The position numbers and the translations under genes are program-made. The notes beneath the pieces were generated by a model, which saw nothing but the letters and a program-made list of their open reading frames with translations, did not search any database and was not told the DNA's origin. This document shows positions 1 through 32,371 of a DNA stretch of 64,000 bases, in pieces. Position 1 is the stretch's first letter; the number at the start of each line of letters is the position of its first letter. This DNA comes from Nemertoderma westbladi (lineage: Eukaryota > Animalia > Xenacoelomorpha). Location of the stretch: contig JAUCBJ010008732.1 of the NCBI GenBank assembly GCA_032718475.1, positions 1 through 64,000 of the forward strand, given 5' to 3'.

Positions 1-3000
1 GTTTAGGAACGTAATGGTGAGTTAAGTAATACGTTCTTTCAGTCACAGGTGTTTCTTCCGGTACTCTCTCCGCGTATCCCTTACTAATAAATTTTTCCAG
101 CTGTGTTTGATACATTGCTTTAGCTGAAGAATTAGCCGTAAGGCGTCGATGGAGTTGCGCGATTCTTTTTTCCGCCAAAGGTCTGTTATTGATGAACTTC
201 GGTTCTCTCTTGCGAAAAGGTAAACCGACTTCATACCTACCTTGATCTTTGATGAAACGTGTAGTCGTCTCTTGGATCTGCTTGGCCCTTTCCTCTTCCA
301 CTGATAAAGCCTTATCGTAGGAATTGGGCTCTACCGCCTCTTGCGTAAAGAATCGTACAGCATGTTCATCTCGAGTCTTGGCATTACAACGCTCAATGAC
401 GTCATTTAACTCGTCGTTATAAGCTTCTCGTTCAGATGGATAGAGAAGTTGACATAAGTTCACTTGGTTTTGCCAAGCCTCGTTTTCCTTAAGGAGATCG
501 ATGGTATTCTCCTCATCAAAAAGCTGGTGAACGTCGTCATTATCTGAGGAGTATGGAATTCCCTCAGTTGAGTTGTCTCCCTCACTGGTATCATCTTCCC
601 ATTCACTCACCTGGCATACGCTCTCTGGCGGTAGTCTTTCTCTGAGTGTTCTACGGGAAGGGCCAGTAAAGTACCAACCTACTCTAGTTCTTACCGCATA
701 GGTCTGTAGGGGCTGCGGTTGAGCAGGCCGTTTCTCTAACGTCTCCAGCGCCTCATGCGCGTTTTGGCCGATGAGTATTTGCACTCCAGGATAATCAGTC
801 TGGAATCGAGGTATGTTAAGATGTTGGATGCTCTCATCCTCGTCCCAATTATAAAGGTCTGCTTGAGTAGTAGCGAAGTTCTTTATAGCCACCATTTTCA
901 CTGACCTTATGCTGTGTTCTCCTAGTTTGTCCTGGGGGGTGGACAACGCTCCTACATAATAATCAGCTGTTATTGTAGATTTCCAAACTTGCATAATGCC
1001 TGACATGTTGAGCTTAGTTTGGAACTTGGGTTGTCCAGCAAATATATCTTCGGCTAGCTCTTTGTCGATGAATGTTCCTGTACTACCGGAGTCAAGGAGG
1101 GCGTTCACTACATAACTCCTCTCAGGTCCGTGAACCCTTACTTGCACCACAGGAAACTCTCGGATCCCTACATTGGAAGATGGCTCTTTCCAAGATGGTT
1201 GTCGCTCAGAAGTAGTTAGAGTAAAGTCGTTGTCTGTATCTTTTTCATAGGTGAGTGCTCGATACACTGCGGTATTTATCATATAACAGGATTCGTTTTC
1301 GTCGGAGAACTCGTCTGTATAGAATCCTTCCATCTCAGATTGATCAGTGTCGTTCACATCACTGAATTGGACATGTAGCTCGGAATCACTTACCTGATTC
1401 GGACTATTTCGATCGAATTCAGCGTGCAACAAGATATGATGTTTCGCACCACACTTTGAACATCTTATGTCAGAGAAACAGGTTCGCCGTTGGTGTCCTT
1501 GTCTGAGGCAATTGTAACATAACCGCTTATCCCACATGACTTCGCGTCTCTCTGTTAATGATTTCTTTAGAAATTCATCACACCTATTCAAATGGTGGGT
1601 CCCGTCGCACAGCGCACATTTCGGTTTGATGTTACTTACCTTATTTTGAGTCACATTGTGTACACTTGCCTTTTCTTCGGGTTTTCTCACCTGAATTCTC
1701 TTGGGAGACGTGGGAGGAGTTTTTCTTACCTGTTCCCTCCTGTCATTTGTTCGAGACTTGAATTTACTTACCTGATCTTTAGGCATTTTATTCACGTAAT
1801 AAGATCTATCCGTGTCCTTCCCGCTATCTTCTCCTTGAGAAGTCTGGCTTTTGCCGTCATCGGTATAACATACTGGTGTTACCTTTCTCCTAGAGACGGG
1901 TTTTTCACTTACCTTGTTTTCCGGTGTCTTCTCTCTGGACAGTTTCAGGAGCTGTAATTTCACTTCTCCATCTAGGAATGACATGAGATCAGCCATGGTA
2001 GGGTCTCGTCGTTGTTGTTCCATCATATATAACACTTTCTTATCCCAGCGTGTACCTACTCCACCTTTCGGTAAAGTAGAAGCCACTGCTCTAATAACCA
2101 TAGTGTTCTGATACTCATGAGACTTACCTAGCCAATCTAATTGTCTGCAGATCTCCTGGATCTCATCGGAAAACTCGATAATTCCACTACTAATAAACTT
2201 TCGGGGCGCTACTAACTTTGCATATAAGTACCCAGCGATATTATTCCTATTACCATACCTGATGTTTAGTGTATCCCAAACTTGTCTTAATCCGTCTGGA
2301 TGTCCAATAAACTTTAACGCCATTAACTTGGGAGATCCTTCCAAGCACTCGATGAGGTATCTAAGTTTGTCTCCATTAGATAGTACAGAGTTCTGTATGT
2401 TATCTTTGTAATATTCATTAAAAGGTAACCATTTCATCTCATCTCCATTGAACTTGACGATCTCTCCCACCTTTACCGCTTGCCGGGCTTCGGTTCTAGC
2501 CATTTGGCGCGTAAAACTTTCTTGGGCCATCGTGTTATTTAATATCGAATTATCGGTATATAAATTTCTCGGATTATGATCAGTTCTATAGGGAATGTCA
2601 TTATCAACAGGTCTATAATTACCCTTAATAGGGTTCACTATAGGAGTTTCTACTTCGCTAGCAGTATATATGCGTGTAGGTTCCACACCTTGCGCATGCG
2701 ATACTTCAGACCTAACAGGTTGACACATTGTTACAGAGGGTGGTGGTATACCTCTTTGAGTATTTACTAATTTATCGCGCTCTAGCGCGATACTTTGCTG
2801 CACTTCTTGCAACTCTAGCCTACTTTCCCTTACTGTGCCCTTGAACTGCTGGACAGTCTCCTGCATCTGTCCGAGCAGGATATCCATCCCCCGCCGTCTC
2901 TCGTCCACCCATTCGACCGCCGAAGCGGGAGTCGCCAACGTTGTAGCGGGCGGACGAGGGACAACGGGCGACAAATTATGAATATTTCGCTCGGGGTCCA

Positions 3001-4874
3001 GGACCTGAACTGTCCCCTGGGCAGTTCTACGGGGCACAGGTAGCTTAGTGCTATGCAGAGGGAATTTAGAGGTAACTTCAGGGAGCACAGGGGTGTCTAT
3101 CACCGAAGGGGTGATTTCGAGAACAGGCCTAATTATTTCAGGCTCATCTACTATAGTAGGGAGTCTTTCTATTTTAATTATTTGGTCTGTGGGTTCTGTA
3201 CTGCCTAAGTTGGTGCTATTTAGTTGCCTTCTAACAGCTGGAGGCAAATCAGGCAATTTCTGACGGTGGAATGTTCTTTTACGTCTGCTTAGACGAGATC
3301 TATTTCCTTTGCCTTCAGTATCGGTGGTATCGCCTTCCTCAGATGATGTATATCCCTGCCTTTTGGGAGTAGATCGATTCATCATCTGCATATTACTAGC
3401 TGTTAACTGTTTATTTATGCAGTCTTGATTCTCCTGAATGTTTTCTAATTCTAATTGGGTGGTTTCTTCAGTCGCTCTCCGTTCTGCTTCTGCCACTGCC
3501 TCTGCCGCCTTTCTTTCAGCTTCGGCCGCTTTTGCTTCTGCCGCTGCCTCTGCCGCCTTTGCCTCTGCCGCTGCCTCTGCCGCCTTTGCCTCTGCCGCTG
3601 CCGCTTTTGCCTCTGCCGCTGCCTCTGCCGCCTTTGCCTCTGCCGCTGCCTCTGCCGCTGCCGCTTTTCTTTCTGCTTCTGCAGCTACCACTGCTGCTTT
3701 CTTTCTGTCTTCTATACGTTTTTTCTTTACTTGTTCTTCTTGGACTCGTGTCAGGCGGAGTTGTTCATCAAATTTAGCCTGATTCGCAGCCCTCATTTCC
3801 ACATCGATGGCATCCAACACAAGCTTGGTTCCTTCGCTATTAGGGCTAAGTCCATCTAACCTTCTCCTCAGTTCGTCATCACCTAAAAAACGTTGATAGT
3901 CCGACAGATAGATGTCAATGGCATCCCTCTTATGTGGTTTCTCTGCCGTCGCTTCACTTTCCACTTGGGAATAAGTAGCGTCTGTTGATTCTCCATGGGT
4001 TGATCGCTCCTCCAGCTGAGCTTTCCACTGAGCTGTTCCTTGAACCTGGAGATTCACCCGTTGAAACCAAGCCTTTACAGCAACTTGCAACGACGTGTCT
4101 TGTCTTCGTTTAGAAGCCTCCTCAAAGGCCGATAATATTAGCCTGATTCGTAGAATTCTTTCTCTAACTTGATAAAGCAGCAATCCCTGCTCTTGAGGTC
4201 CTTGAGGTTGTTGAAACAGGTTGTTTTAATCGCTCTATAGAGCTGAAGAATCCCTGTGCGTATCCGGCTGCGGACCTCTTCCACACAGCTGGATCGATGG
4301 TTTCCTTGGCTACTCCCATCCGGTGTATGTCTTCCCAGGCAGCTTCTGATAAATCAAATGGGAGTCCGGGTCCGGGGAAGTTCCATTGCGACTCGACAAT
4401 AGACTTCAGTTCTTCACTCGTGTATCCCGCGTAACTATCTCTAGTTGACCGTTGACTTCTCGCCCAATCGATCTGGTGTTCTTCCACCGCGATCAATAAC
4501 CTAGTGAGTACGGCTGCAGGAAGGATGAGAAGGGGATCCGTATAAACCGCATCCGTCATCTCTGCTCCGCGCTCGGGTGTCAGCTCTACAGTATCCTCAC
4601 TACTGGAGCTGCTGGGCCGCTGAGGAATAAGTCCTTGACTCGCGGGTTGTTGCTGTTCCGCTGCTTCTTGGTCCCGCTTGACTTGAGCTCGGGTGCCTAT
4701 GATAGACCTACGATGTTGGACTAGCCTAGGTTCTGTTATTACTACTGGAGGGATGACCTTCCTCACAGTGGGAGGTGAACTGAACTTACGACTAGGTGGT
4801 TCTACGCCTCTATCTGAGTCGCAGATAGTTACATCTAATATACTGTCTGACAGGTTCTGCTTAGTATCAGACAT
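1..4874 (-). pseudogene. BEL-1 gag-pol with a frameshift at ~4225
   Basis: ORF 4164-4874 matches the BEL-2 Gag N-terminus up to ERL. A 2-nt deletion relative to BEL-2 (gagcgattaaaacaacctgttt vs gagcgattggaagaacaactgttt) shifts the frame. The downstream frame continues through gag, protease and a BEL RT N-terminus (RYEVGLPF...KGYAERV...YYLTHH) to the window edge. Confidence 0.88.
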
Positions 4875-4984
4875 GTTTATGTATACAGTTGAATGTCTAC
4901 TGCTGTATCACAGTCTGAGCAAGTCTAGTAACTCAGTATTAACTGCTAGCCTAGTAATTAATTACCGGTACTGCTACTCAGTGT

Positions 4985-7085
4985 AGCGTGATATATAATA
5001 TATTAGAATACCGGTATGCTTATAGTATATAACTATTATTACAGACTAGGTTTATCACCGAATACCGGTATAATTTTAGCACAAATATATATAAATATAT
5101 AATAGGCCTATCGTGGATACCGGTATGCAGTTTACACTTATAGTGTATATATATAAGTATAATTACAGACTAGAATTAATTACAGAATACCGGTATGATT
5201 TCAACCTAAAATTTATAGAAATAAATATAATAAGCCTATTGTAAATACCGGTATGTCAATTATTTTAGAATAATTGAATTTCTGAACTTTAGGGTTACTT
5301 GGTTACTTTAACTTACTTTATTACCGTTATTTAAGCAGTAGTCCAACTGATATTGAGACCTAATTGTTATATGGTAGGCCTACTATTTATAAATCGTTAG
5401 ATTTGATTTATAATATATATATACCCGTTTTAATGGGTTTAGTCAATGTTTGAAATAAATGTTATTATTTCTGGGGGTAATCACTACACAAAGCGGTGCG
5501 CTTTCAGTGAAGTGTTACTTATAGGACACTAAAACAAATGATTCTAATTTACCTAAGTTACTTAATACTACAAATTACGTACAATTCGGGTGAGATTACA
5601 ATCTCTAAATAAACACAAAAATTTACAAAAACGCAAATACGAATTTCAGGGTAATTTTACAAGAAGTCTACAAACCAGCCTAACAAAGGGTTAGAATTCT
5701 GGTTATTACAACGGACAGGGTACTACGGTATTTGAAATAATAAGTAGTAGTAAATACACTGCGTTGTCCAGATAGAAAAATACCACCGCCTGACGACCTA
5801 TAGCCGTATCGCTATAGGTTCTACGTTATGTATCACGGAGTGTTCCTACCTAGAAGTTAATAGAGCTAATCGAACGTGCCTATCAACCACTTTATAACAC
5901 AAATATAATGTCTACACTAATTACTTCGGAAAGTACTGTACACTAAACCCTAAATTAGGTACGAGTACTTGTACAACAGATAATCAGTAGTTAAATATAC
6001 TTGAACAGCTAAAAGAACCACGGCATCTGCTGGAGTGACCGATGCACAAAATCACCAGTCTTTACCTACGCCAAGCAGCCCGTGTAGTACCGGGGTTAAT
6101 TTAACTATAGCGGTATGTATAACAAACACAATTACTGTAGGAACAAACTTGGGGAATGAATGTTGCGAATAATCGCATAAACTCTGAATAATAAATATTA
6201 CGCTACGCGTACAAACTACTCAAACAAAATGCAGACCGAACACTGACAGACTACTATCAAGCCTAAACAAACTACGGTATATGCAGACTCCGAAATAATT
6301 AGGTAGTATGCGTTCTAACCCAGTAGTACGACTTATTCTTTAATTGGGGGTTTACCTTACAGCATTCGCTGCCCCTACTTCCTAACCGTTCTTTATCGGA
6401 CAAATGATCTACACACGCTGCAATCCGTTCAGACCTAATAACAGCCAGACAACTATCCAGCCTACAAATTATCTAAATAAAATTATACGCTACCCGTACA
6501 GACTTACACAAACAAAGTACAGACTAAACGATGGCAGACTACTCTCAAGCCTAAATAAACTACAGGACATGCAGACTCCGAAATGATTAGGGAGTATGCG
6601 TTCTAACTCAGTAGTACGACTTATTCTTTAGTTGGGGGTTTACCTTACAGCATTCGCTGCCCCTACTTCCTAACCGTACTTAATCGGACAGGTGATCTAC
6701 ACACACTGCAATTCGTTCGGACTTAACAGCAATCAGACAACAGCTCAGCCTACAAATTGTCTGTACAATCTGATCAGGCTTACACGCCTTCTGTTCAATA
6801 CTGGCCTACAAATAAATAAAACTTGACAGAAATAAGTAAACCATATAAAGGAATAAGGGGTGATCAATCCCTAATCCCTTAACAGCCTACCGGTATGCAA
6901 CAATCAAATCGAATAATACTAGTGTACTTATACGGAAGTACCGGTTAGGACAGCTAGGCCTACGGACCTACAGAAGTACCGGTTCTGGCAGTTGGACCTA
7001 CGGACCTACGGCAGTACCGGTTCTGGCAGTTGGGCCTACTGACCTACAGATGTACCGGTTCAGGTTTACCGGTTGACCGGTACTT
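4985..7085. repeat. Repeat-rich 5' leader of BEL-1
   Basis: Recurrent gaataccggtatg units (~5000-5260), a ~290-bp direct duplication (~6190-6770) and ~40-bp gacctacagaagtaccggttctggcagttgg units (~6935-7085). The same architecture occurs in BEL-2 (25200-28930). Confidence 0.75.
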
Positions 7086-7116
7086 TCAACTTTATTGCTT
7101 ACTGCAACAAAGAAGC

Positions 7117-7128
7117 TATATCCTTTAA
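7117..7128 (-). promoter_or_regulatory. Non-tRNA primer-binding site of BEL-1 (sense TTAAAGGATATA)
   Basis: Abuts the LTR end (...GCGCGAACA), has no TGG, and is the perfect reverse complement of LTR segment 7910-7921. Confidence 0.7.
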
Positions 7129-8364
7129 TGTTCGCGCTTTCAGACCTTTGGCAGTTTAACCCGCCAAATTAAGATGTCTTCTAGATATTAAATCGCTTTT
7201 TAGCCTATGACAAGTATTTGATTCACTACACTAGTCGAAACCAATCTGTGCGCGATCATTCACCCGCTGGATATTCCCGGGAGATTGGGTTCGACGGTTT
7301 AATTTTATTGCTATGTAAGCCTAATGTATTATTCGACTGACAGTATTATATTATCTCTGACAATATTATTCACCTTCGGGAATATTAACAGTTCCTTTAG
7401 GACGTGGCGCTTTATCTATATAAACAGAGTTATGACTTAAACTACTCACAACGATATGGCTTAATTATAATTCACATATATGGCGCATTCTTTAGGAATT
7501 GCTTCTTTAACAGACTCACTCATACACAATGCTGCACAATACTGCACACTAATCTGCCAATCTTCACTGATTTTAGTCACATATAAAAGGAACACAGACT
7601 GACTCATGTAGGGTCTATCAAATAACATTAGATTCACTTCAAACCACTTTAACATAAGTCACAATCGTTATTGGTAACTTTTCTCTCTTACCTTCGGTAT
7701 ATCAAGAATATTGGGTTTTCGGGGTTATTTCTCGTTATTCCAATATAATAATTCATCAACAAATATAATGAATAACCGACAACAAATAGCAGTATACAGT
7801 ATCGATTGAGCAGGTAAATTTTAGCAGTTTCAGCAGTTATTAAAAGCCGTGTGTCAGCAGGTATTATGCAGCAGTGACTACTGCAGTTATTCAAGTGATT
7901 AAAAGCCAGTTAAAGGATATATGTCCTTATAATTAAACCTACTAGTGTTGGACTAAAAAGCAGAAAAACACAAAACACTACAAAGCCGTTCTTTCGTGGC
8001 TTTGAAAAACTCGTGACTACTGCACTATACGAGGATACCAACTACCCTTATTCCACGAAGCTCCCGTTCAACACAGAGAAAGAGCAGTGAGATAGGAAAA
8101 TTTCAGTTCAGTAGCTCTGTGATAGGTCAAAATCAAGGCTAACTCAAATTCTATTGGGAGATACAAAAACAAGGCTATGACGCAACCTTCCTAGGCTAGT
8201 TGGCCGATTAAACAGAGCCCAGATGCCTGCGTACAGCAAATCAGCCAATAAGCTGGTAGCTTGCACTATTTTAGCTATAAATCCCCTTGAGAGTATTCTA
8301 GCGACCGGGGGGGGGAACTGGCTAACAAGGCAAACGAATCAGTTATCCCACAAAAGCTTTTACA
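7129..8364 (-). repeat. 5' LTR of BEL-1 (1236 bp)
   Basis: Sense termini TGTAAAAGC...GCGCGAACA are identical to those of the BEL-2 LTRs, and similarity to the BEL-2 LTR pair has the same boundaries. Confidence 0.9.
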
Positions 8365-16085: not shown

Positions 16086-17259
16086 TGTTCGCGCTTTTGA
16101 AGACCTTTAGCAGTTTAACCTGCCAAAATTTATATGTCTTTAGTTAATTAAAACACCTTTAGCATACGACAATATTTTATGCTAATAAACAAAACATTAG
16201 CCGAAGTCAGCCCATGCGCGATCATTCACCCGATGGATCTACACCCGGGAGGCTGAATTCGGATGCTTAAATTTTATTATTGCAGTGTAAGGTTGCAGTG
16301 TAAACCTACTGTATTATTCGATAGATCGTTAATAATTAATTTCTGACAGATATTATTGGCTTTCGGGAAATATTAACAGTTCCTTTACGCTCTATCTATT
16401 TAAACAAAACTAGGACTTATACTAAACGCAACGATACCGCTTATGATTAAAGTATAAGGCGCATTCTTTAGGAAATGCTTTGTTACCAATCACAATCATG
16501 CACACTATTCTGCCGACCGTCAGTAAATTTGATCACACATAAAGAGAGCAGCAATTGACTCATGTAGGGTCTGCTAAATAACATTAGATTCAATACACAC
16601 CACATTGATATAAATCGCAATTGTTATGTATAGCCTGTCTCTCTAACCTGTAGTGTATCAAGAAAATTGGGAATTTTGGGTGATTTATCCGTATTCTCCA
16701 AAGGGCAATAATTCATCAACAAATAGATACAATTAATAACTGACGGTAAATAACAGTACAAACAATATGATTAGTGCAGTTAAATTAAGTGAGTTAGGTA
16801 AGGTAACAGTTATACTTTCGATAATTTAAGCAGTTTTACTGGAGTTCTTCCCAAAAGCCGGTGTTATGGCGAAAAATGGGAACATAACAACAGAATCATA
16901 TGAAGAATCATATGACTACATGACTATACGAGGATACCAACTACCCTTACTCCCCGAAGCTCCCGTCCAACACAGAGGATGAGCATACAGATAGGAAATT
17001 CAGTTCAGTAGCTCTGGGATAGGTCAAAATCAACGCCCACTCAAATTCTATTGGCCGATACGGACAGCAGGGCTGAGGCAACCTCCCTAAGCTGGTTGGC
17101 CGATTAAACGGAGCCCAGATACCTCCGTACAGCACATCAGCCAATAAGCTGGTAGCTTGCACTATTTTAGCTATAGATCCCTTTTAGAGTATTCTAGCGA
17201 CCGGGGGGGAACTGGCCAGCAAAGGCAAACGAATCAGTTATCCCACAAAAGCTTTTACA
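16086..17259 (-). repeat. 3' LTR of BEL-2 (1174 bp)
   Basis: Direct repeat of 28979-30157 (by eye about 2 substitutions and 3 indels); TG...CA termini. Confidence 0.95.
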
Positions 17260-17268
17260 CCGCTCCCA
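17260..17268 (-). promoter_or_regulatory. Polypurine tract of BEL-2
   Basis: Sense TGGGAGCGG immediately precedes the TGT of the 3' LTR. Confidence 0.65.
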
Positions 17269-17337: not shown

Positions 17338-18787
17338 TTAGTCTTTCTTGCGCGGACGGCGTTTACGCAGTTTTTTAAAGCTAGCAAGAGTCCTTTTCTC
17401 TTTGGGGCGAGCCACTTTACAAGGAGGGCTATAACTCCTGGGTGAAGGGTGCAATATGATTGCATCAGAAGGTATGGGATTATGATCGGTATATCCGCCG
17501 GTCGAAGTACCGGGTTGATTGACATCAACGTCCGGGGAGAGGGGTCTAACGGCTTTGAGAGCTCGTTTCAAGACAGCCGCTCTTACGGGTCCTTTACGAG
17601 CGGTCTGAACGAGGGCCGTGGGTGGACCATAGGCAGTTAGAAACTTCCTTGGTTTAATGGTTCTTTCCAACTCGCGTTCGCGGGCTCGGTACTCGTAAGG
17701 CCGTCGATATACTTCCTGTAACTCGGGGTGTGAGTTGACAAATAAGTCTCCATAGGCAGGGTCTTGACGGATAAAGTTTATTAAGTTGTAAGAATAGATG
17801 TCACTCGGATTAATGCTCCTGAGAAATTCGCGTACATATTTGGTTGAAATACATTCTCCAACGCGCTTCAGTAGTTCGTAACTCGATATGCGTGATTTCT
17901 GTTCGACAGAAGCGAATAGATAAGGATGGAACGCATAAACTCCTTCGTAAGCGCGTCCAGGATAATAACGATGGCGCGAATCACAATGTAAATCAGCGTT
18001 CGCTTCCCAAGCTCTGATGTAACGTAGTGTGATCATTTCATCTACGCTTTCCAAATCGTGACTAAAAAGGGCAATCGAAACTGACACGTCCCTTTAGTTG
18101 ACAATGGTGACATTGAGTCATAAATTGAGGGCAAACCGCAAAAATGTGCAAGTTATTGAGTCTGTAATACGCGCAATAAATTTCCATCGTCGGTTGTTCG
18201 TGGAAATAGGAACAGCGGACGTTTGTGTCCATGGGCGTAACATGGTCTCTCGATGCGCATAACCGACAACGTTGCCGAGAAACATAGTTGGCATGGCGAT
18301 AATCGTACGCAGTGAGACACTGTGGACCTTGATACCATTCTAGGAGGTAATCGTTGTCGTTGTTCCGGGCGCGATAGGCTGAATCTCCTCAGATTCTAGG
18401 CATATTGGTTCGTCTTCCCAGTCTGTTACGAATATAATTTTCGTGATCTATTCTCGGTTTATCGTTACGACTCCGCTGGGTATGATATTTAAATAGAACC
18501 ATTTCCCTTTCGGTGTATACATCATCCGTATCATGTAAATCGATAGGATGGCCGGTAGTTAGGAAGTCCATATACGTACCATTACGATGCGTATAGCGAG
18601 CGGTTAATTTTCGATAGTCCAATTCACGCGTAAGTTGCTCTTGGGACATCGGCGGTTCGATATAACGACCATCGTCCTCCGTAATGGTTGGATCGGCTTC
18701 ACCGCGTATCAAGCTATCCACAAATGCTTGTAAAGGTAGAGTATATCGTTCCCTGATACCAAGATCATCTTCTATTAATTCCGTCAT
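17338..18787 (-). pseudogene. BEL-2 extra ORF (~480 aa reconstructed): triple zinc-knuckle protein
   Basis: Reading through the TGA at 18389-18391 gives CRLCASRDH..C, CAYYRLNNLHIFAVCPQ and CHHCQLKGRVSFDCPF. One extra T at ~18065 joins this to ORF 17338-18087 (SHDLES...RAWEANADLHCDSRHR...basic tail). Confidence 0.8.
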
Positions 18788-20408: not shown

Positions 20409-23400
20409 TTACGTTATGGAGTCCCTAGATATTTGTCGGATTAGGGAAGTGGTCGTAGGAAGAGTATCTTGCCTTCCATAGTTTCCGGACAGTTTTCGGT
20501 CTCTTTCCAGTAAACATAAACGACTAGCTGGGCGATTGAGTTGTTGTGTTACTTTCTCCGCTCCCTTGGCCTGTCTAATTTCTGCCGTGGTAAGATGAGG
20601 AGGCCATTCTTCTTCTTCTTTACTTAAGGAGTCGGATCCACCTAACCAGCCTGGAGTATCTATCAGTTCTTGAGGAGTTGCTCCTCTGGAAGCGATGTCG
20701 GCTGGATTAATCGTCCCAAGGCAATGTCTCCATTGATCTACATTGGAGTTAATATCGTCATTATCTGAGGAGTATGGTGTTCCCTCAGTTGGATCGTCCA
20801 CATCACTGCTCTCCACTTCCCCCTTTACTTGGTATACCTGTTGTTGAGGTAATCTCTCTTTGAGAGTTCTACGGGAAGGGCCAGTGAAGTACCAACCTAC
20901 TCTAGTTCTTACCGCATAGGTTTGTAGTGGCTGCGGTTGAGCAGGCCGTTTCTCCAATGTCTCGAGCGCCTCATGCGCGTTTTGGCCGATGAGTATTTGC
21001 ACTCCAGGATAATCTGTCTGGAATCGAGGTATCTTAAGATGTTGGATGCTCTCATCCTCGTCCCAATTATAAAGGTCTGCTTGGGTAGTAGCGAAGTTCT
21101 TTATAGCCACCATTTTTACCGACCTTATACCTTGTGCTCCTAATTTATCCTGGGGGGTGGATAACACACCTACATAGTAATCTGCCGTTAGGGTAGATTT
21201 CCAAACCTGCATAATTCCTGACATATTCAATTTAGTCCGGAATTTGGGTTGTCCAGCAAAGATATCTTCGGCTAGTTCTTGATCGATGAATGTTCCTGTG
21301 CTGCCGGAGTCAAGGAGGGCGTTCACTATGTAACTTTTGTTAGGACCGTGAACTCTTACCTGCACTACAGGAAATTCTCTGATTCCTACGTTGGAAGTTG
21401 GAGCTTTCCAAGATGGTTGTCTATCAAAGGTTGTTGGGGGAAACTCATTGTTGGTGTCCTTTTCATAAGTAAGTGCTCGATACACTGAGGTATTTATTAG
21501 GTAACAGGATTCGTTGGCGTCGGAGAATTCGTCAGTATAGAATCCTTCCATCTCAGACTCTTGATCAGTGTCATTTATATCACTGAATTGGACATGTAGT
21601 TCGGGCTCACTTACCTGACTCGGGTTGTCTCGTTCGAACTCACTGTGTAACAAGATGTGATGTTTCGCGCCACACTTTGCACACTTTACGTCGGAGTAAC
21701 AGGTTCGCCGTTGGTGTCCTGATCTGAGGCAATTATAGCATAACCGCTTATTCCACAGGACTGTACGTCTGTCTACAAGGGATTTCTTTAGAAATTCAGC
21801 ACACGCACTCAAACGGTGGGGCCCGTCGCACAGCGCACATTTTGGTTTGATGTTACTCACCTTAACTTGGTTAACGTTATGCACTCTCGTTCTTTCTTCG
21901 GGCTTTCTTCCGTGAATTCTCTTAGGAGACTGAGGAGGGGTCTTGGCAACCTGTTCTCTCCTATCGTTGTTTCGAGCCTTGTATTTACTTACGTCCTTTG
22001 AGGTTTTGTCAACATAATAAGATCGGTCTGTATCTTTCCCGCTGTCCTCTTCTTGGGAAGCTTGGCTTTCGCCGTCGTCAGTGTAACACACCGGTGTTAC
22101 TCTTCTCCTAGAAGTGGGTTTCTCACTTACCTTATTTTCCAATGTTTTCTCTCTGGACTGCTTGATGAGTTGTAGTTTTACTTCACCATCTAAGAAAGAC
22201 ATGAGATCAGCCATGGTAGGACTTCGTCGTTGTTGTTCATTCATGTACAACACTTTCTTGTCCCAGCGTGTACATACTCCACCCTTTGGTAAAGTAGAGA
22301 CTACGGCTCCAATAACCATGGAACTCTGATATTCATGCGACTTACCTAACCAGTCCAGTTGTCTACAGATCTCTTGAATTTCATCGGAAAACTCTATAAT
22401 CCCGCTACTAAGGAAGTGTCGGGGGGCTACTAATTTTGCATACAAATACTTAGCTATGTTATCCTTGTTACCATACCTGATGTTTAATGTATCCCAAACT
22501 TGTCTTAATCCGTCTGGATGTCCAATAAACTTTAACGCCATTAACTTGGGAGGTCCTTCCAAGCACTTGATGAGGAATCTAAGTTTCTCTCCGTTAGATA
22601 GTACAGAATTCTGTATGCTATCTTTGTAATATTCGTTGAAAGGTAACCATTTCATCTCATCTCCATTGAATTTGACGATCTCTCCCACTTTGACCGCTTG
22701 GCGGGCTTCTGTTCTAGCCATCTGACGCGTAAAACTTTCTTGGGCCATCGTGTTATTTAATATCGAATTATCGGTATATAAATTTCTCGGATCATTATCA
22801 GGTCTATAGGGAATATCATTAATAACAGGTCTATAATCACCCTTAATAGGGTTTGCTATAGGAGTTTCTACTTCACTAGCAGTATAGATGCGTGTAGGCT
22901 CCACACCTTGCGCATGTAATACTTCAGACCTAACAGGTTGACACAATGTTACAGGGGGTATTGGTATGCCCTTTTGTATATTGACTAATTTGTCGCGTTC
23001 TAGCGCGATACTTTGCTGCACTTCTTGCAACTCTGCTCTACCTTCCCTCACTGTTCCCTTAAGTTGGTGGACAGTCTCCTGCATCTGTCCCAGCAGGAGA
23101 TTCATCCCACGCCGTCCCTCTTCCACCCACTCAACCGCCGAAGCGGGAGTCGCCAACATAGTAGCGGGCTGACGCGGGACGACGGGAGACAAATTTTTAA
23201 TTTCTCTCTCTGCTATCTGGACAGGGATATTCTCTTGGACTGTTCCACCGGGTACAGGCAGTGTAGTACTATGTAAAGGGAATTTAGAGTTAAGCTCTGG
23301 AAGTACAGGGGTCTCTAACACAGAAGTGACTTTGGGAACGACAGGCCTAATTATCTCAGGCTCATCAACTATTGTAGAGAGTCTTTGGACCTTAATACTT

Positions 23401-25136
23401 TGGGCTGTAGGTTCTATACTACTCAAGTCTGTGCTAGCTAGCTGTCTTCTAACAGCTGGGGGCAAATCAGGCAATTTGCGACGGTAAGATGTTTTTCTAC
23501 GCCTACTTAGATGAGATCTATTTCCTCCGCCTTCAGGATCGGTAGTCTCGCCTTCCTCCGAGGATGTGTATCCCTGGCGCTTGGGAGTAGATTTTCTCAT
23601 CATCTGCATTTGATTAGCAGTAAACTGTTTATTTATACTGTCTTGCGTCTCTTGCAGATTTTCCAACTCCAATTGGATAGTCTCCTCAGAAGCTCTCCGT
23701 TCTGCTTCTGCCACTGCTGCTTTTCTTTCTGCTTCTGCTTCTGCCGCCTTTCTTTCGGCTTCTGCTTCTGCTTCTGCCGCCTTTCTTTCGGCTTCTGCTT
23801 TTGCCGACTTTCTTTCGGCTTCTGCTTCTGCCGCCTTTCTTTCGGCTTCTGCTTCTGCTTCTGCCGCCTTTCTTTCGGCTTCTGCTTTTGCCGACTTTCT
23901 TTCGGCTTCTGCTTCTGCCGCCTTTCTTTCGGCTTCTGCTTCTGCCGCCGCTGCTGCTGCCACCTTTCTTTTCTCTATCCATTCTTTCTTTACTTGTTCT
24001 TCTCGGACTCTAGTGAGGCGGAGTTTTTCATCACATTCAGCTTGGTTTGCAGCTAACATTTCGGCATCGATTGAGTCCAACACGAGCTTGGTTCCTTCAC
24101 TATTAGGGGAAAGTCCAGACAGCCGTCTCCTCAACTCTTCGTCTCCTAGGAAACGCTGATAGTCGGACAAATAAATGTCGATAGCGTCTCTAGTTTGCGG
24201 TTTCTCGGCGGTCTCTTCGCTTTCCGCTTGAGAAAGGTTGACATCAGTTTGTTCTTCATAGGGTGATCTCTCAGCCAGCTGGGATTTCCACTGGGCCGTT
24301 TCCTGTACTTTGAGACCTACCCGATGTAACCAAGTTTTGACAGCAACCTGCAGCGACGTGTCCTGTCTTCTTTTGGAAGTTTCCTCAAAGGCTGAGAGGA
24401 TTAGTCGAATGCGTAGGGTTCTTTCGCGTACTTGGTATAGCAGCTCTTCCTGCTCTTGAGGTCCTTGAGGTTGTCGAAACAGTTGTTCTTCCAATCGCTC
24501 CAAGGAGCCGAAGAATCCCTGCACATATCCTGCTGCCGACCTCTTCCAAACAGCTGGATCCATTGTATCTTTAGCCACTCCCATCCTGTGTATATCTTCC
24601 CAAGTAGCCTCGGACAGATCCAACGGGAGTCCGAGTCCGGGAAAGTTCCATTGTGACTCGACAATAGACATCAATTCTTCCCTGGCGTATCCCGCATAAT
24701 TATCTTGGGTCGCTCGCTTATTTCTCGCCCAGTCGGCTTGATGTTCCTCCACTGCAATGAATATAGTAGTTAGCACTGCAGCAGGAAGGGTAAGAAGGGG
24801 GTCCGAGTAGACTGTAGCAGCTATCTGCACTCCGCTTTCGGGGGTCAGCTCTACAGTATCCGAACTACTGGAGCTATCGGGTCGCTGGGATGTAGGTTCT
24901 TGACCAAGATGTTGCTGCGATGGGACAACTGCCTCTTGGTTCCGTTTGACCTGTGCCCGAGTGCCTATGATGGACCTATGGTGGATTAGCCTAGGGTCTG
25001 ATACTACTGGAGGGATGACCTTTCTTGCAGTAGGAGGTGAGCTGAACTCCTTTCTTAATCGCTCCACACTCCTATCTGTGTCACAGATGGTTGTATCGAT
25101 CAGACTGTCTGACAGGTTTTGCTGAGTGTCAGACAT
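20409..25136 (-). CDS. BEL-2 Gag-protease polyprotein, 1575 aa, with internal pol deletions
   Basis: AEAERK coiled-coil repeats, a DUF1759-like KFNGDEMKWLPF region, the BEL triple knuckle CALCDGPH..C..CYNCLRSGH..C..CAKCGAKHHILLH, protease LLDSGS, then QWRHCLGTINPADIASRG (end of RH) and RPASRLCLLE (end of IN). Confidence 0.92.
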   Translation of the reverse strand: MSDTQQNLSDSLIDTTICDTDRSVERLRKEFSSPPTARKVIPPVVSDPRLIHHRSIIGTRAQVKRNQEAVVPSQQHLGQEPTSQRPDSSSSSDTVELTPESGVQIAATVYSDPLLTLPAAVLTTIFIAVEEHQADWARNKRATQDNYAGYAREELMSIVESQWNFPGLGLPLDLSEATWEDIHRMGVAKDTMDPAVWKRSAAGYVQGFFGSLERLEEQLFRQPQGPQEQEELLYQVRERTLRIRLILSAFEETSKRRQDTSLQVAVKTWLHRVGLKVQETAQWKSQLAERSPYEEQTDVNLSQAESEETAEKPQTRDAIDIYLSDYQRFLGDEELRRRLSGLSPNSEGTKLVLDSIDAEMLAANQAECDEKLRLTRVREEQVKKEWIEKRKVAAAAAAEAEAERKAAEAEAERKSAKAEAERKAAEAEAEAERKAAEAEAERKSAKAEAERKAAEAEAEAERKAAEAEAERKAAVAEAERRASEETIQLELENLQETQDSINKQFTANQMQMMRKSTPKRQGYTSSEEGETTDPEGGGNRSHLSRRRKTSYRRKLPDLPPAVRRQLASTDLSSIEPTAQSIKVQRLSTIVDEPEIIRPVVPKVTSVLETPVLPELNSKFPLHSTTLPVPGGTVQENIPVQIAEREIKNLSPVVPRQPATMLATPASAVEWVEEGRRGMNLLLGQMQETVHQLKGTVREGRAELQEVQQSIALERDKLVNIQKGIPIPPVTLCQPVRSEVLHAQGVEPTRIYTASEVETPIANPIKGDYRPVINDIPYRPDNDPRNLYTDNSILNNTMAQESFTRQMARTEARQAVKVGEIVKFNGDEMKWLPFNEYYKDSIQNSVLSNGEKLRFLIKCLEGPPKLMALKFIGHPDGLRQVWDTLNIRYGNKDNIAKYLYAKLVAPRHFLSSGIIEFSDEIQEICRQLDWLGKSHEYQSSMVIGAVVSTLPKGGVCTRWDKKVLYMNEQQRRSPTMADLMSFLDGEVKLQLIKQSREKTLENKVSEKPTSRRRVTPVCYTDDGESQASQEEDSGKDTDRSYYVDKTSKDVSKYKARNNDRREQVAKTPPQSPKRIHGRKPEERTRVHNVNQVKVSNIKPKCALCDGPHRLSACAEFLKKSLVDRRTVLWNKRLCYNCLRSGHQRRTCYSDVKCAKCGAKHHILLHSEFERDNPSQVSEPELHVQFSDINDTDQESEMEGFYTDEFSDANESCYLINTSVYRALTYEKDTNNEFPPTTFDRQPSWKAPTSNVGIREFPVVQVRVHGPNKSYIVNALLDSGSTGTFIDQELAEDIFAGQPKFRTKLNMSGIMQVWKSTLTADYYVGVLSTPQDKLGAQGIRSVKMVAIKNFATTQADLYNWDEDESIQHLKIPRFQTDYPGVQILIGQNAHEALETLEKRPAQPQPLQTYAVRTRVGWYFTGPSRRTLKERLPQQQVYQVKGEVESSDVDDPTEGTPYSSDNDDINSNVDQWRHCLGTINPADIASRGATPQELIDTPGWLGGSDSLSKEEEEWPPHLTTAEIRQAKGAEKVTQQLNRPASRLCLLERDRKLSGNYGRQDTLPTTTSLIRQISRDSIT

Positions 25137-26612
25137 GTTTAGCTATACAGTTGAATGTCTACTACTATAGTTTCAGTTAAAGCAAGTCTGGTAATTCAGT
25201 ATGACCGCAAGCCTAGCGATTTATTACCGGTACCGTTACTCGGTGTAACGTGATATATATACAATATATTAGAATACCGGTATGCTTATAGTATATATAA
25301 GTATTATTACAGACTAGATTTGTCACAGAGTACCGGTATATAATTTTAGCACAAATATATATAATATATAATAGGCCTATGGTGAATACCGGTATACAGC
25401 TGACACTTATAGTATATATAAGTATAATTATGAACTAGAATTAATTACAGAATACCGGTATGATTTCAGCTCAAATTTATAGAAATAAATATAATAAGCC
25501 TATGGTAAGTACCGGTATGTCAATTATTTTTTAGAATAATTGAATTTCTGAATATTTTAGGGTTACTTGGTTACTTTAACTTACTTTATTACCGTTATTT
25601 AAGCAGTAGTCCAACTGATATTGAGACCTAGTTGTTGTAAGGCAGGCCTACTATTTATAAATCGTTTGAGTTGATTTATAATAGATATATACCCGTTTAA
25701 AAAGGGGTTTTGTCAATATTTGAAATAAATGTTATTATTTCTGGGGGAGTCACTACACAGAAGCTGTGCGCTCTCAGTGAAGTGTTACTTATTGAGACAC
25801 TAAAACAGATAATTCTAATTTACCTAAGTTACTTAATACTACAAATTACTTACGATACGGGTGAGATTAATTCTCTAATTAAAAACACAACAAAATATTA
25901 CGTACGAAATTTTAGGGTAATTTTACAGGGAAACTACAAACCAGCCTAACAAAGGGTTAGATTTCTGGTTATTACAACGGACAGGGTACTACGGTATTTG
26001 AAATAATAAGTAGTAGTAAATATATTGCACTGTCCAGATAGGAAAATACCACCGCCTGACGACCTATAACCGTTTCGCTATAGGTACTACGTTATGTATC
26101 ACGGAGTGTTCCTACCTAGAAGTTAATAGAGCTAACGAATGTGCCTATCAACCACTTTACAACACAAATATACTGCCTACACACTAATTACTCTCGGAAG
26201 CACTGTACACTAAACCCTAAATTAGGTACAAGTACTGGTACAACAAATAATCAGTAGTTAAATATACTTGAACAGTTAAAAGAACCACGGCATCTGCTGG
26301 AGTGACCAGAGCACAAAGTCACCAGTCTTGTCCTACGCCAAGCAGCCCGTGTAGTACCGGGGTTAATTTAACTATAACGGTATGTATAACAAGCACAATT
26401 ACTGTAGGGATAAACTTGGGGACATGAATGTTGCGAATAATCGCATAAACTCTGAATAATAAATATTACGCTACCCGTACAGAATACTCAAACAAAAATA
26501 CAAACCAAACGCTGGCAGACTACTATCAAGCCTAAACAAACTACAGTATGTGCAGATTCTGAAACTGTTAGTTAGTATGCGTTCTAACACGGTAGTACGA
26601 CTTATTCTTTAA

Positions 26613-28189
26613 CCCTATTAAACCCGGGGGGGGGGGGGGGGGGTCAATATGACCCCTCCCGTGGTTTTTTTATTATAATTCTGAAACAAACGCAGTTGGG
26701 AATCTGAAATTTTATGACTTTTCCTAAAAATCTATTGTCTTCATGGTAGTGAAAACCGTTTTCAAAATATTGGGTACTTTTCGAGTTATAGCACCATATT
26801 TTAACCCTACCTTTGGCACTTTTTTTGAGACGTTTTTTGAAAATTACATTTCATTAAATATGAATTGTAACATCTCTATTTTTGATTTACACCGGTTTTT
26901 TGGTGTTAGAAATTGGATGGAATTCATATAAATTGATTTAGAAATTTCAAACTTGTTTTTTTCGATGGGTGCCAAATTTTGGTGCCAGCACCAAATTTTG
27001 AAATAAGTCAATTTTGTAAATTGATTGTTTGAAACTTGTTTTTTTACGTAATTGGGGTTTTTTGAGGTTCTGGATTCGATGAAATATATACGAGTTGAAC
27101 CAAGCGTATCAAACTTGTATTTTTCGGTGCTGTGTGCTAATTTTGGTGCTAGCACGAAATTTTGAAAATCCATTCAATATATAAAATTGCTTGTGACAAT
27201 TTATTTCTTGCGTTTTAGAGGTTTATGGCTGTTCTGAATTCAATGGAAAATATAATTATCGAACTAGACATCTCAAACTTGTATTTTTCGGATGTGGGTG
27301 CAAAATGTGGTGCTAGCACCAAATTTTGAAAACCATCAAATATATCAATTGATTGTGTCACCTTGTTTCTTGCGTTATACGGGTTTGTGATGGTTCTGAA
27401 TTCAATGGAATCAGTAAAAATTTCATAAGAGTTCTCAAACTTGTATTTTTCGCCGGTGGGTGAAAATTGTTGTGCCAGCACCAAATTTTGGAAAATATGC
27501 AAATTGATAAGTAGATAGTATCACCTTGTTTCTTGCGTTATACGGGTTTATGAGGGTCCTGAATCCGATGGAATCAATAAAAACAGCACTGGACATCGCA
27601 AACTTGTACTTTTTGGTGATGGGTGCGAAATTTGGTGCTTGCACCAAAATTTGCTAAATTACGCGAAAAATACAAGTAGCAATGATCTGGCATATTAGAA
27701 ATGTATTCCATTAGAATCAGCGCCCTCGAAAACCTGAAAATGTGAATTTATAGCATTGTATAAGTGAATTAAAAATTTTGTGTTCTATCTGAAAAGTGCT
27801 GGTTACTTGTTTTTTTCATTTTTTTCCTACGCAGAGAGGACTAAACAGCCATTTATAGTAATTATATCATTTTCAAATATTTTCCAATGTATTTTGCACC
27901 CCAAAAAACCTGTATTGAAAAATAATTAGCCGAAAATGTAACTTTCAAATTTTGTGAAAATTGTGCACTACTTGTAATTTTGGTGCTGCAATATAACCAC
28001 CCCAGTACATTTTTTCGAAAATTTCTTTTTTCGGTCGAATCCAGACAAGTGATACCTACGTACAAACAAAAAATCAGAAAAATCACAAAAAATCAAACAA
28101 ATAAATATTTGTAGATTTTAGAGGGGGGGGGGTCAATATGACCCCCTCCCGGTATTTGTACAACATTTTATAGCCCGGTACTAATAGGG
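26613..28189. mobile_element. Non-autonomous piggyBac-like element (1577 bp) in the BEL-2 leader
   Basis: TTAA TSD at 26609-26612 and 28190-28193. TIRs CCCTATTAAACCCGGG / CCCTATTAGTACCGGG, subterminal ggggtcaatatgacccc repeats and internal degenerate tandem units. The empty site cttattctttaagagggg is visible in the duplicated leader unit at ~28470. Confidence 0.9.
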
Positions 28190-28968
28190 TTAAGAGGGGA
28201 TTGACCTTACAGCATATGGCTGCCCCAACTTACTAACGGCACTTTATCAGACAAACTCTACACACGCAGCAATCCCTTCAGGCCTAAGAATAGCTAGACA
28301 TCAATCTAGCCTACAAAATATTTGAGTAATAACTATTACGGTACCTGAACAGACTACACAAACAAACACAGGCCAAAATGCTGGTAGACCACGATCAAGC
28401 CTAAATAAACTACAGTATATGCAGATTCTGAAACTGTTAGTTAGTATGCGTTCTAACACGGTAGTACGACTTATTCTTTAAGAGGGGATTGACCTTACAG
28501 CATATGGCTGCCCCAACTTACTAACGGCACTTTATCAGACAAACTCTACACACGCCGCAGTCTCTCCAGACTCAACAACAGTCAGACAACAGTCAAGCCT
28601 ACAATTATTTGTACAATTTGAGCAGGGTCACACGCCTTCTGCTCAATATTAGCTTACATGTAAATAAAACCGACAGAAATAAGTAGAATCTCAAATAAAA
28701 ATCAGGGCGGCCGTTCCCTGATTGAGTACCAAGACCTACCGGTATACAATAATCAAAATCGAATAATACTAATGTACTTATACAGCAGTACCGGTTAGGA
28801 CAGTCGGGCCTACAGACCTACAGAAGTACCGGTTCTGGCAGTTGGACCTACGGACCTACAGCAGTACCGGTTCTGACAGTTGGGCCTACTGACCTACAGA
28901 AGTACCGGTTCAGGTTTACCGGTCACTACGGTATTTTTCAACCTTATTGCTTACTGCAATAAGATCGT

Positions 28969-28978
28969 TAACTGTTAC
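28969..28978 (-). promoter_or_regulatory. Non-tRNA primer-binding site of BEL-2 (sense GTAACAGTTA)
   Basis: Abuts the 5' LTR, has no TGG, and is the perfect reverse complement of LTR segment 29701-29710 (16803-16812 in the 3' LTR). Confidence 0.7.
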
Positions 28979-30157
28979 TGTTCGCGCTTTTGAAGACCTT
29001 TAGCAGTTTAACCTGCCAAAATTTATATGTCTTTTAGTTAATTAAAACACCTTTAGCATACGACAATATTTTATGCTAATAAACAAAACATTAGCCGAAG
29101 TCAGCCCATGCGCGATCATTCACCCGATGGATCTACACCCGGGAGGCTGAATTCGGATGCTTAAATTTTATTATTGCAGTGTAAGGTTGCAGTGTAAACC
29201 TACTGTATTATTCGATAGATCGTTAATAATTAATTTCTGACAGATATTATTGGCTTTCGGGAAATATTAACAGTTCCTTTAGGACGTGGTGCTCTATCTA
29301 TTTAAACAGAACTAGGACTTATACTAAACGCAACGATACCGCTTATGATTAAAGTATAAGGCGCATTCTTTAGGAAATCATGCATTATCACAATCATGCA
29401 CACTATTCTGCCGACCGTCAGTAAATTTGATCACACATAAAGAGAGCAGCAATTGACTCATGTAGGGTCTGCTAAATAACATTAGATTCAATACACACCA
29501 CATTGATATAAATCGCAATTGTTATGTATAGCCTGTCTCTCTAACCTGTAGTGTATCAAGAAAATTGGGAATTTTGGGTGATTTATCCGTATTCTCCAAA
29601 GGGCAATAATTCATCAACAAATAGATACAATTAATAACTGACGGTAAATAACAGTACAAACAATATGATTAGTGCAGTTAAATTAAGTGAGTTAGGTAAG
29701 GTAACAGTTATACTTTCGATAATTTAAGCAGTTTTACTGGAGTTCTTCCCAAAAGCCGGTGTTATGGCGAAAAATGGGAACATAACAACAGAATCATATG
29801 AAGAATCATATGACTACATGACTATACGAGGATACCAACTACCCTTATTCCCCGAAGCTCCCGTCCAACACAGAGGATGAGCATACAGATAGGAAATTCA
29901 GTTCAGTAGCTCTGGGATAGGTCAAAATCAACGCCCACTCAAATTCTATTGGCCGATACGGACAGCAGGGCTGAGGCAACCTCCCTAAGCTGGTTGGCCG
30001 ATTAAACGGAGCCCAGATACCTCCGTACAGCACATCAGCCAATAAGCTGGTAGCTTGCACTATTTTAGCTATAGATCCCTTTTAGAGTATTCTAGCGACC
30101 GGGGGGGAACTGGCCAGCAAAGGCAAACGAATCAGTTATCCCACAAAAGCTTTTACA
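28979..30157 (-). repeat. 5' LTR of BEL-2 (1179 bp)
   Basis: Direct repeat of 16086-17259. Confidence 0.95.
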
Positions 30158-32371
30158 ACCGCAAATATTCCACTTTAGTACACTTATATGTAAAATTGTA
30201 ATCTATGAAGTCATTCCTTCCCGAAGTGGCACAAGTATACCCTTTGGTTCAAGTAACCCCGGATGACGGTACCTAGGAAGATTTTTCGTAGAGTAGAAGT
30301 AAAACTCTCACCTTCGACTTTTCAGTACTCAATGACTCATTTCTGGACCGCTTCGAGGGATTAGACCGCTTTTCGCAAAGTTTTGGAGACACAAAATTCG
30401 TCCGCGACGCCGAAAACGGAACAACCCACATCCGGTTTGTATCTGGGACTTTGTACGACTGGAAGATCAAAGGAGCGTAAGTTTTACGACTCGTGTCGTT
30501 CAAACTTAAGAGCACAGTAGTACTCAAAATTTGTGGGTTCCACTGTCTAATTAGTAGTGTTGTTGGTACTTATTTTCCCATTAGACGTTGCTGTTTTGCC
30601 TATTATTTGCACTTGTTGATCTACATTTTGGTAGTGTATACCGTTATCTCACTTATTTGTACAAATTTAGCCAGTAGGCTAGATTATTATATTTTATTAT
30701 ATACTTTGATTTTATTTGTACCGGTTAGGGTATATATATAGTCTGTATATATACCAAGGTAAGTTTGACATTTCGACATTCTGACACTTTGAAATTTTAT
30801 TACCCGTACTTGACGTATATAATAGACATGAGTGATACACCACATTCGACTCGATACCCACCTACCGACTATGACTCGTGTGACCCAGACAGATTGACAG
30901 TAGACAAACCGAGAAGGAGGACCCGAGATTCTACCGATGTCACACCGTGTGCGTCGCCAGTACCCCGAATGGAAATACCAGTATTTGACGGTAGAACCGA
31001 AGACTTCCTTACCGTCTGCAATCCAGATCGATGGAACCGGACACGGTAAGTTCGACTGGAAGCCAAGAGAATATTATTAGGAGTATAGGAGGATACATTA
31101 CTCGAAATTTCGGAGAAGGTTTTCGCGTTTTGCGGCGAGTTAACCGCCCCGATGTCGAGATACGAGTTCTACACCTTACAGGTAAGGATAGCTTGTGGCG
31201 ACAACTTTACCCAGGTAAAGATAATCGATAAGTTGGTAAGTGTGAGGGAAAGCCTCATCCAGTAAGTCGGTTGTAGAATTAACTCAACGAGAGCAACTCG
31301 ATCAACTGATGGGTGAGTCTGTTTCCGACGCGTTGTTGCAACCCAAAGAGGATGAAGAACTATACTGCCTGGACGGGAGGTTAGAAACACTCACCAATTT
31401 TCTTCGTAGATGTGGCGTACCGATCGAAGAACCGGAAGTCAAACCGTGAGGGACGACGGAAGTTTTCGCTACAGAAGGCTCGCGAGCCTACCAAATCCAC
31501 CAATGGATAGATCGTTCGTTAGTGTACAAAGCGACGTTGGCGATGTTAGTAGGACAGCATCTGTAATTACTCGACAACAACAGGAGGTTGCACGCCGACA
31601 ACAAGTCGCCGAGGAAGAAGCGCAATGGCAGATGGCACAGATTGCTATCAAGGGAGAGAAACAATGCAGATAAGCGAGAATTGCGAAACTCCAGGTTCAA
31701 GCCGAATTTGAAGCCTTGGAAATGCGGAGACTGGAGGAGGACTTGGCGCAAGAAGCGGCCGCAGCGGCAGCAGCACGACAGGCAGAAGCTGATGAGTTAG
31801 TGCGGAAGAAAGTGGCATCTGACGCTCGTGCTCAGTTGGAAGCATGGCAAATAAAATCACGTTTAGCCATTCAGGAAGCGGAATTAGCGGCACAACAACA
31901 GGAGGCAGACCGACGCGAGAGAGAGATGCAGTTCCAGTTCGAACTAAATCGCAGATCGAGCGAGGCGGTGAACGCGCAAGAGGACCTCGAACTCGACGCG
32001 AGAGATAGATCTATAAGGTCTCGAGCTGGACATAAACTTGTCTGCCCTGGATCGCATGGAGACTCGATATCGCGGAATTCAGAAGCAAATCGAGGAAGGA
32101 AGTGTGGGAGCGATAGATCGAGGGGAGGAGTTCGTCGAGGATTACTGTCAACTTTTTCCCCAAGTTATTCCTATGCTCAAACCCACGACTCCAGTAAAAC
32201 CGGTCATAGTTGCAAAACTGAAGGAAATATCACCTGTGCAAGGTAATAGGTTTTTTTATGTCGGAATCAATTCTGCAGCCAAGAGCGACTTCATCGCCGA
32301 TTCTCGCAGGTAAGATAAGTAGTCCGCCTACTGTAAGCCGTAGTTTACTTGTAGAGAGAGAATCACCAGCC

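Follow-up and report, generated by a model that had tools for sequence, protein, structure and literature searches.

LTR retrotransposons of the Belpaoviridae are described as using host tRNA to start reverse transcription. The ICTV profile of the family gives a primer site of 18 nt, for tRNA-Arg or tRNA-Gly, and presents replication as host-tRNA-primed and poorly understood (PMC8742986), in agreement with how a sequence-only reading of the DNA studied here had summarized BEL/Pao priming. Priming from the element's own RNA is known from the Tf1/sushi group. According to published reports, the 11 bases that open the Tf1 RNA pair with the site and RNase H cuts between bases 11 and 12 (PMC7175516), the Tf1 "pretzel" consists of three duplexes (PMC10085805), self-priming has been reported for Tj1 (PMC4600332), and Tf2 is regulated via start-site choice (PMC5341516). 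The sequence-only reading tied this mode of priming to the Tf1/sushi lineage, which is too narrow: PMC6317226 predicts it also for the Tcn1 clade and for copia TAR elements (Houba, Osr-1) from similar sequence evidence, with a criterion of at least 10 nt of complementarity starting 0–5 nt from the LTR. The TAR and Tcn1 cases would show that self-priming originated repeatedly; they are plant and fungal copia or gypsy elements, whereas the elements described below are BEL/Pao. Tf1 reportedly retains its primer, and elements of the Osser, Bryco and Bianca type are half-tRNA-primed.

We found no earlier report of BEL/Pao self-priming in the full-text literature, in line with the sequence-only reading; supplements, Repbase, GyDB and subscription journals may hold one. 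The words primer, PBS, tRNA and intron never occur in the main text of the main BEL/Pao survey (PMC3118150), and the accessible parts of PMC6934838, PMC13524379, PMC3601003, PMC8220671, PMC5443660 and PMC5445492 contain no BEL/Pao self-priming.

Two BEL/Pao elements in the window

The window, the whole 64-kb stretch of DNA that we analysed, appears from its content to be animal repeat DNA. It holds several BEL/Pao elements, among them BEL-1 and BEL-2, both on the minus strand:

30157 to 16086, minus strand: BEL-2, whole element, bounded by its two LTRs
28979..30157, minus strand: BEL-2 5' LTR, 1179 nt, TG...CA, 98% identical to its own 3' LTR
16086..17260, minus strand: BEL-2 3' LTR, with the primer segment repeated at 16803-16812 and a purine-rich tract directly upstream
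20409..25142, minus strand: BEL-2 coding frame, 1577 aa, with gag (DUF1759, zinc knuckles), protease and a remnant of ~50 aa of RNase H
7129..8364, minus strand: BEL-1 5' LTR, 1236 nt, TG...CA, aligned end to end with the BEL-2 LTRs
2..4907, minus strand: BEL-1 gag-protease, in overlapping frames 4164-4907 and 2-4225, leaving the window before RT

The LTR end is set in BEL-2 by its own 3' LTR (16086-17260) and in BEL-1 by alignment to BEL-2. BEL-type gag and protease are encoded between the LTRs, the arrangement that characterizes the Belpaoviridae: DUF1759 is found in both elements (E 9e-12 each), the protease motif is present, and all 11 matches to the BEL-1 C-terminal region carry Peptidase_A17. 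The DUF1759 gag, zinc knuckles, protease, RNase H remnant and ~1.2 kb LTRs match Belpaoviridae/Semotivirus (BEL, Pao, Tas, Sinbad, Suzu); unlike those elements, BEL-1 and BEL-2 have no 18-nt site for tRNA-Arg or tRNA-Gly. They are thus BEL/Pao elements that depart from the stated tRNA feature of their family. Membership of Tf1/sushi, which has a Ty3/gypsy chromovirus pol with a chromodomain, was considered and rejected because the proteins are BEL-type.

The two elements are 83% identical over the internal region and 87% in gag-protease. Of the family's pol order, PR-RT-RH-IN, RT and integrase are missing from BEL-2, whose RNase H remnant matches other BEL loci; BEL-2 is therefore non-autonomous and cannot make its own RT. 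BEL-1 may be autonomous, as its frame continues past the window edge into a stretch that in relatives lies before RT. No target-site duplication is present at BEL-2, the comparison covering this element only since the other end of BEL-1 lies beyond the window; the flanks of BEL-2 differ and fall in different repeats, which suggests recombination between copies.

Several further features were seen. The BEL-2 leader includes ~1.6 kb (26612-28190) with no BEL-1 counterpart, holding a 163-bp tandem repeat, and the 3-kb region before the BEL-2 3' LTR has a 251-aa frame (17338-18093, minus strand) with no Pfam match and a basic C-terminal tail. A third BEL element occupies 55820-64000 (minus strand), with its 5' end beyond the window, an RNase H-integrase frame at 60572-63304 and an extra 674-aa frame (57365-59389, no Pfam match) before its 3' LTR. 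A fourth, distant and broken BEL gag (DUF1759) lies at 30158-35473 (plus strand), with a LINE-like RT inserted at ~32340-34110. BEL-2 cuts its LTR; what may be the LTR end, at 30423, is similar to the LTR ends of BEL-1 and BEL-2, and non-TGG sequence follows it. The window also contains a 7.5-kb array of a 21-bp unit (37914-45398) and arrays of 18- and 24-bp units (47400-50000).

Complementarity and covariation of primer site and LTR

Next to each 5' LTR lies a putative primer binding site showing complementarity to the LTR itself:

7117..7128, minus strand: BEL-1 putative primer binding site, directly abutting the LTR end and free of TGG
7910..7921, minus strand: BEL-1 candidate self-primer (12 nt), located where the LTR is most divergent
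28969..28978, minus strand: BEL-2 putative primer binding site, directly abutting the LTR end and free of TGG
29701..29710, minus strand: BEL-2 candidate self-primer, 10 nt, homologous to the BEL-1 candidate in an ungapped alignment

Sequence comparison bears out the geometry proposed in the sequence-only reading. Positions 7117-7128 are the exact reverse complement of 7910-7921, and 28969-28978 (taactgttac) that of 29701-29710 (gtaacagtta). The segments start 443 (BEL-1) and 447 nt (BEL-2) from the LTR start, as had been given, their 3' ends lie at 455 and 457, and 781 and 722 nt, respectively, separate them from the LTR end. Pairing does stop at the LTR border: the first base after the LTR opens it, and starts shifted into the LTR yield only 4–7 nt. 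The polarity fits priming, with the primer 3' end abutting the first base after the LTR. The Tf1-type measure asks for complementarity of at least 10 nt to the 5' LTR of the same element, starting 0–5 nt from the LTR; the two elements have 12 and 10 nt at offset 0. Among 5000 dinucleotide-shuffled LTRs, a match of equal length arose 3 times for the 12 nt of BEL-1 and 7 times for the 10 nt of BEL-2, and of the background words from the rest of the window 15/57584 matched in the BEL-1 test and 110/57588 in the BEL-2 test. Matches of either site to the LTR of the other element reach only 6 and 5 nt.

The two sites had been called very different. They are in fact homologous and share 6 of 10 positions in an ungapped alignment. 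Each of the four differences is offset by a Watson-Crick change in the LTR segment (4/4), a four-fold compensation with a chance probability of roughly 1e-5, the covariation in the window being that of two elements. Swapped site/primer pairs do not pair (+0.9 and -0.5 kcal/mol, versus -11.6 and -11.4 kcal/mol for the elements' own pairs). Between a U5 end whose last 12 nt are identical in the two elements and a conserved leader hairpin, the site is 40% diverged. Around the primer segment (8016-7820) the sliding identity between BEL-1 and BEL-2 is 30–54%, making this the least conserved part of the LTR.

Six sequencing runs from four studies, none recorded as RNA, contain the LTR or part of it, and the DNA runs hold it in very many variant copies (10898 and 2421 contigs aligned). 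Among the best 40 of 189 differences, some lie next to the primer (29692-29699) and next to the site (28967), and none inside either. A narrower contig alignment has variants at ≥15% at 18 of 801 positions and none in site or primer. This says little, since only ~0.5 such variants would be expected in the two and the site fell close to one end of the aligned stretch. The contigs show that the BEL-2 site/primer pair is the common form but give too sparse a picture for a test of covariation. In one contig a BEL-1-like leader stretch is joined to a BEL-2-type site (28921-28969), hinting at further subfamilies or recombinants. Chance or an assembly artefact could draw on the words being short and AT-rich and on the lack of a target-site duplication at BEL-2. 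We regard it as extremely improbable in view of the shuffle tests, the same homologous position in both elements, the four compensations, the presence of the LTR in independent DNA runs and the lack of a major variant at either site among the differences listed. Judged by its sequence, the complementarity is a real and functional feature.

The sequence-only reading also holds as regards tRNA: TGG is absent from the first 200 nt of both leaders, so that a mature tRNA 3' end is excluded as primer, and neither a tRNA gene nor an Rfam match occurs anywhere in the window. Priming by a host tRNA half or other small RNA, with the LTR segment as a regulatory mask over the site until packaging, would accord with the description of BEL/Pao elements as tRNA-Arg or tRNA-Gly primed (PMC8742986), and TGG-less half-tRNA primers exist in copia lineages (PMC6317226). 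Such a primer is nevertheless unlikely: one tRNA could not follow a site that differs at 4/10 positions between sisters 87% identical in gag, TGG-type BEL elements are without such a mask (0/11), and the sites are AT-rich.

The complementarity, its flush register, the four compensatory pairs and the lack of TGG are directly seen. On this evidence we think it probable that the LTR segment of BEL-1 and BEL-2 primes the element's own reverse transcription instead of a tRNA, a Tf1-like arrangement within the Belpaoviridae. If a variant with the primer acting in trans is counted too, self-priming becomes very likely. We infer a start site, a cleavage, a priming step and a templated rewriting of the site, as follows. 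Transcription would start at the segment or some tens of bases upstream, and the LTR segment would anneal to the site 720–780 nt downstream. The element's RNase H, which for the pol-deleted BEL-2 would be supplied in trans, would cut the RNA directly 3' of the segment, and the new 3'-OH, placed precisely at the LTR border, would serve as the start of minus-strand synthesis across U5 and R. The retained primer would next be copied into a new binding site during plus-strand synthesis, and each cycle would rewrite the site from a template. Copying of the primer into the site would account for a site that diverges in parallel with a hypervariable stretch of the LTR while the flanks of the site are conserved.

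If true, tRNA-free priming arose in all three LTR superfamilies, and the site is a sequence marker for a BEL sub-lineage that is missed by annotation tools demanding a tRNA site. Self-priming would also predict that RNA ends uncapped at 7909/29700 and that strong-stop cDNA bears LTR RNA at its 5' end.

LTR signals, start site and predicted folding

Further signals in and next to the LTR bear on where the RNA may start and how the site may be presented:

8014..8364, minus strand: U3-like block, 88% identical to 29811-30157, containing CCAAT boxes (8249, 8157) and, at 8029, a weak TATA-like word
7304..7309, minus strand (29167-29172 in BEL-2): the only poly(A) signal common to both LTRs, from motif comparison
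7615..7691, minus strand (29469-29545 in BEL-2): intron-like segment of 77 nt with donor, branch and YAG, downstream of the primer
7250..7258, minus strand (29110-29118 in BEL-2): segment with which the final 10 nt of U5 pair best, a candidate for a flanking duplex of the Tf1 "pretzel"
7147..7168, minus strand (28998-29021 in BEL-2): predicted U5 hairpin, from local folds and alignment
7090..7112, minus strand (28940-28966 in BEL-2): predicted hairpin directly after the primer binding site, with a donor-like word in its loop

The conserved block at 8014-8364 is likely the promoter. Right before the primer, identity between the sisters falls sharply, from ~88% (8014-8364) to 30–54% (7820-8014); the drop could correspond to the U3/R border or reflect an exchanged U3. 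A start near 7921/29710 had been predicted in the sequence-only reading. Judging by the CCAAT boxes, the TATA-like word and the point near 8016 where the block ends, transcription may begin up to ~80 nt upstream of the primer. The primer may sit within the RNA instead of forming its first bases. A second TATA-like word common to both LTRs (7420/29304) could instead place the start ~500 nt downstream of the segment, leaving the segment outside the RNA 5' region.

Folding predictions depend strongly on this start. If the RNA starts at the primer, the predicted pair probabilities of primer and site are 0.78–1.0; with a start 100 nt earlier the predicted pairing goes to 0 in both elements, and in BEL-1 it does so with a start 30 nt earlier as well. 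This loss of cis pairing with a longer 5' end, over the 720–780 nt between primer and site, is one reason to consider an element-RNA primer that acts in trans, either from short capped transcripts terminating at the LTR poly(A) signal (of abundant solo LTRs or of the partner genome in a dimer) or, if the start is late, from the 3' LTR copy. The late TATA-like word, the very many variant LTR copies in the DNA runs (10898 and 2421 contigs) and the primers of the junction-type relatives described below, which end shortly before a poly(A) signal, speak for it as well. Against it stand the CCAAT boxes and conserved block upstream of the segment, the cis route demonstrated in Tf1 (PMC7175516), and the fact that a cut in the 3' LTR copy would sever the template. 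We rate a trans primer as rather unlikely, if slightly less so than a tRNA half.

Resemblance of the predicted structure to Tf1 is partial. Like Tf1 and Tf2 of Schizosaccharomyces pombe, Tj1, Tosmo and other Tf1/sushi elements, BEL-1 and BEL-2 have no tRNA site and match their own LTR over 10–12 nt, with the primer 3' end at the LTR border and with a candidate U5 hairpin and one candidate flanking duplex. That duplex, formed by the U5 end, is equalled in 11/300 and 21/300 shuffles, and it is identical in BEL-1 and BEL-2 and hence offers no covariation. The second (leader) flanking duplex is at chance level (45–218 of 300 shuffles), and a duplex of the leader with the poly(A) signal was rejected, being no better than shuffles and in competition with a local hairpin. 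The window elements differ from Tf1/sushi in superfamily (DUF1759 gag), in the distance of 720–780 nt between primer and site, in a start possibly upstream of the primer and in the unsupported second duplex.

The other candidate helices around the site also allow the pairing to be read as a structural long-range helix, serving packaging, translation or poly(A) control, with priming by another route; long-range helices covary too. Such a helix would have no need to open exactly with the base that follows the LTR, where the pairing opens in both window elements (and within 0–1 nt of the LTR in four of five paired-LTR relatives), and the reading leaves the elements with no primer site at all. We consider it improbable.

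Several features count against self-priming itself: the late TATA-like word, the loss of predicted pairing with a longer 5' end, the weak support for one flanking duplex only, and the 77-nt intron-like segment. This segment lies downstream of the primer and, if spliced, should be lost on replication. No joint at this segment was found in the contigs of a run guessed as RNA, contigs that are uninformative on this point.

Primer sites in other BEL/Pao elements

We compared the window elements with 18 BEL loci taken from prokaryote genome records by a BEL pol alignment scan and 11 further stretches from the same records, 29 in all. These loci are presumably animal DNA binned into the records, that is, host contamination. 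Paired LTRs are present in 16 of the 29, and LTR ends were inferred in six; seven lie outside the test (L004, L015, L020, L021, L057, L058, L065).

The sequence-only reading had proposed a search for LTR complementarity in related elements. Among loci with paired LTRs, self-matches are present in 5/5 non-TGG elements and in 0/11 of the TGG type. In the latter (L010, L013, L016-L019, L059-L063), which represent about 5 families and come in 9 cases from one genome record, the best contiguous self-match is 4–6 nt and the best junction match 0–7 nt. The non-TGG loci (L007, L012, L005, L055, L011) have self-matches of 11–14 nt. That of L007 is contiguous, 11 nt at offset 4 (2/1000 shuffles). In L012 a match of 14 nt exists only across a GT-AG junction inside the LTR (0/200 shuffles), and the same is true of the 11 nt each in L005, L055 and L011, which are individually modest (2/200, 8/200 and 7/200 shuffles). 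Between the sisters L005 and L055, two bases at the exon end are changed, and so are the two site bases opposite them, which makes two compensatory changes across the junction. The six loci with inferred LTR ends (L006, L008, L009, L014, L056, L064) fit junction matches of 11–13 nt; these are weaker, as 93–153 candidate ends were scanned in five of the six, and in L056 the top end-scan scores are internal hairpins and the junction match was set by eye.

The junction-type elements (L005, L011, L012, L055 and the six with inferred ends) resemble BEL-1 and BEL-2 in the lack of TGG, the self-match of 11–14 nt at or near the LTR border and the covariation between sisters. In them the primer is formed only once a predicted LTR intron (251 to 1022 nt) has been taken out, whereas that of BEL-1 and BEL-2 is contiguous and far upstream. 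A splice-built primer in the window elements was tried and rejected, since none of the GT/GC-AG junctions in their LTRs reaches the length of the contiguous match. The junction-type primer ends 44–129 nt from the LTR end in the paired-LTR cases. A TATA box lies 103–243 nt before the donor in four of the five junction-type LTRs scanned, so these primers are probably internal, and the TATA positions favour the fallback of the sequence-only reading, an internal primer. With an internal or splice-built primer, mobility would be tied to splicing and to where transcription starts.

A quick pol tree puts the nine elements labelled as self-matching on one side (SH-aLRT 94), opposite all ten TGG-labelled rows; L061 was dropped for its short match, and L020, L021 and L065 were left out. 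L006 and L008, on the self-matching side, were unlabelled when the tree was built and were later found to fit junction matches. A gag tree of 14 rows places BEL-1 and BEL-2 outside the junction-type group on a long branch. In a protease-to-pre-RT tree, from which L007 dropped out and in which the L004, L010 and L012 rows are unreliable (18–19 bits), the five rows nearest to BEL-1 and BEL-2 are junction-type, and a single clade is not rejected (p-AU 0.49).

The proposal that BEL/Pao evolved self-priming is thus supported, by the four compensatory pairs and by 5/5 against 0/11; its restriction to the lineage of BEL-1 and BEL-2 probably does not hold. A wider BEL group probably shows the self-priming signature, mostly with the primer split by an LTR intron. 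More tentatively, and with somewhat more doubt than confidence, we suggest a broad unrecognised BEL/Pao branch without tRNA priming, whose primer would come from the interior of its own RNA and would mostly be assembled by the spliceosome. The window elements would be the unsplit form, and rewriting of the site in each cycle would yield family-specific pairs.

Searches beyond these records added no relatives: a BEL relative is encoded in 0/5 and 0/40 candidate viral contigs, and an LTR-end pattern search in metagenome contigs was discarded, as 3/3 matches were chance bacterial ones with no similarity to the window. The bacterial genome records carry intact animal BEL elements (L004-L021, L055-L065), with up to 15 profile matches per record. 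The L012 LTR (6017-6721) has the form TA...AA with a 5-bp duplication and the L059-L063 LTRs have the form TG...TA, none ending in CA.
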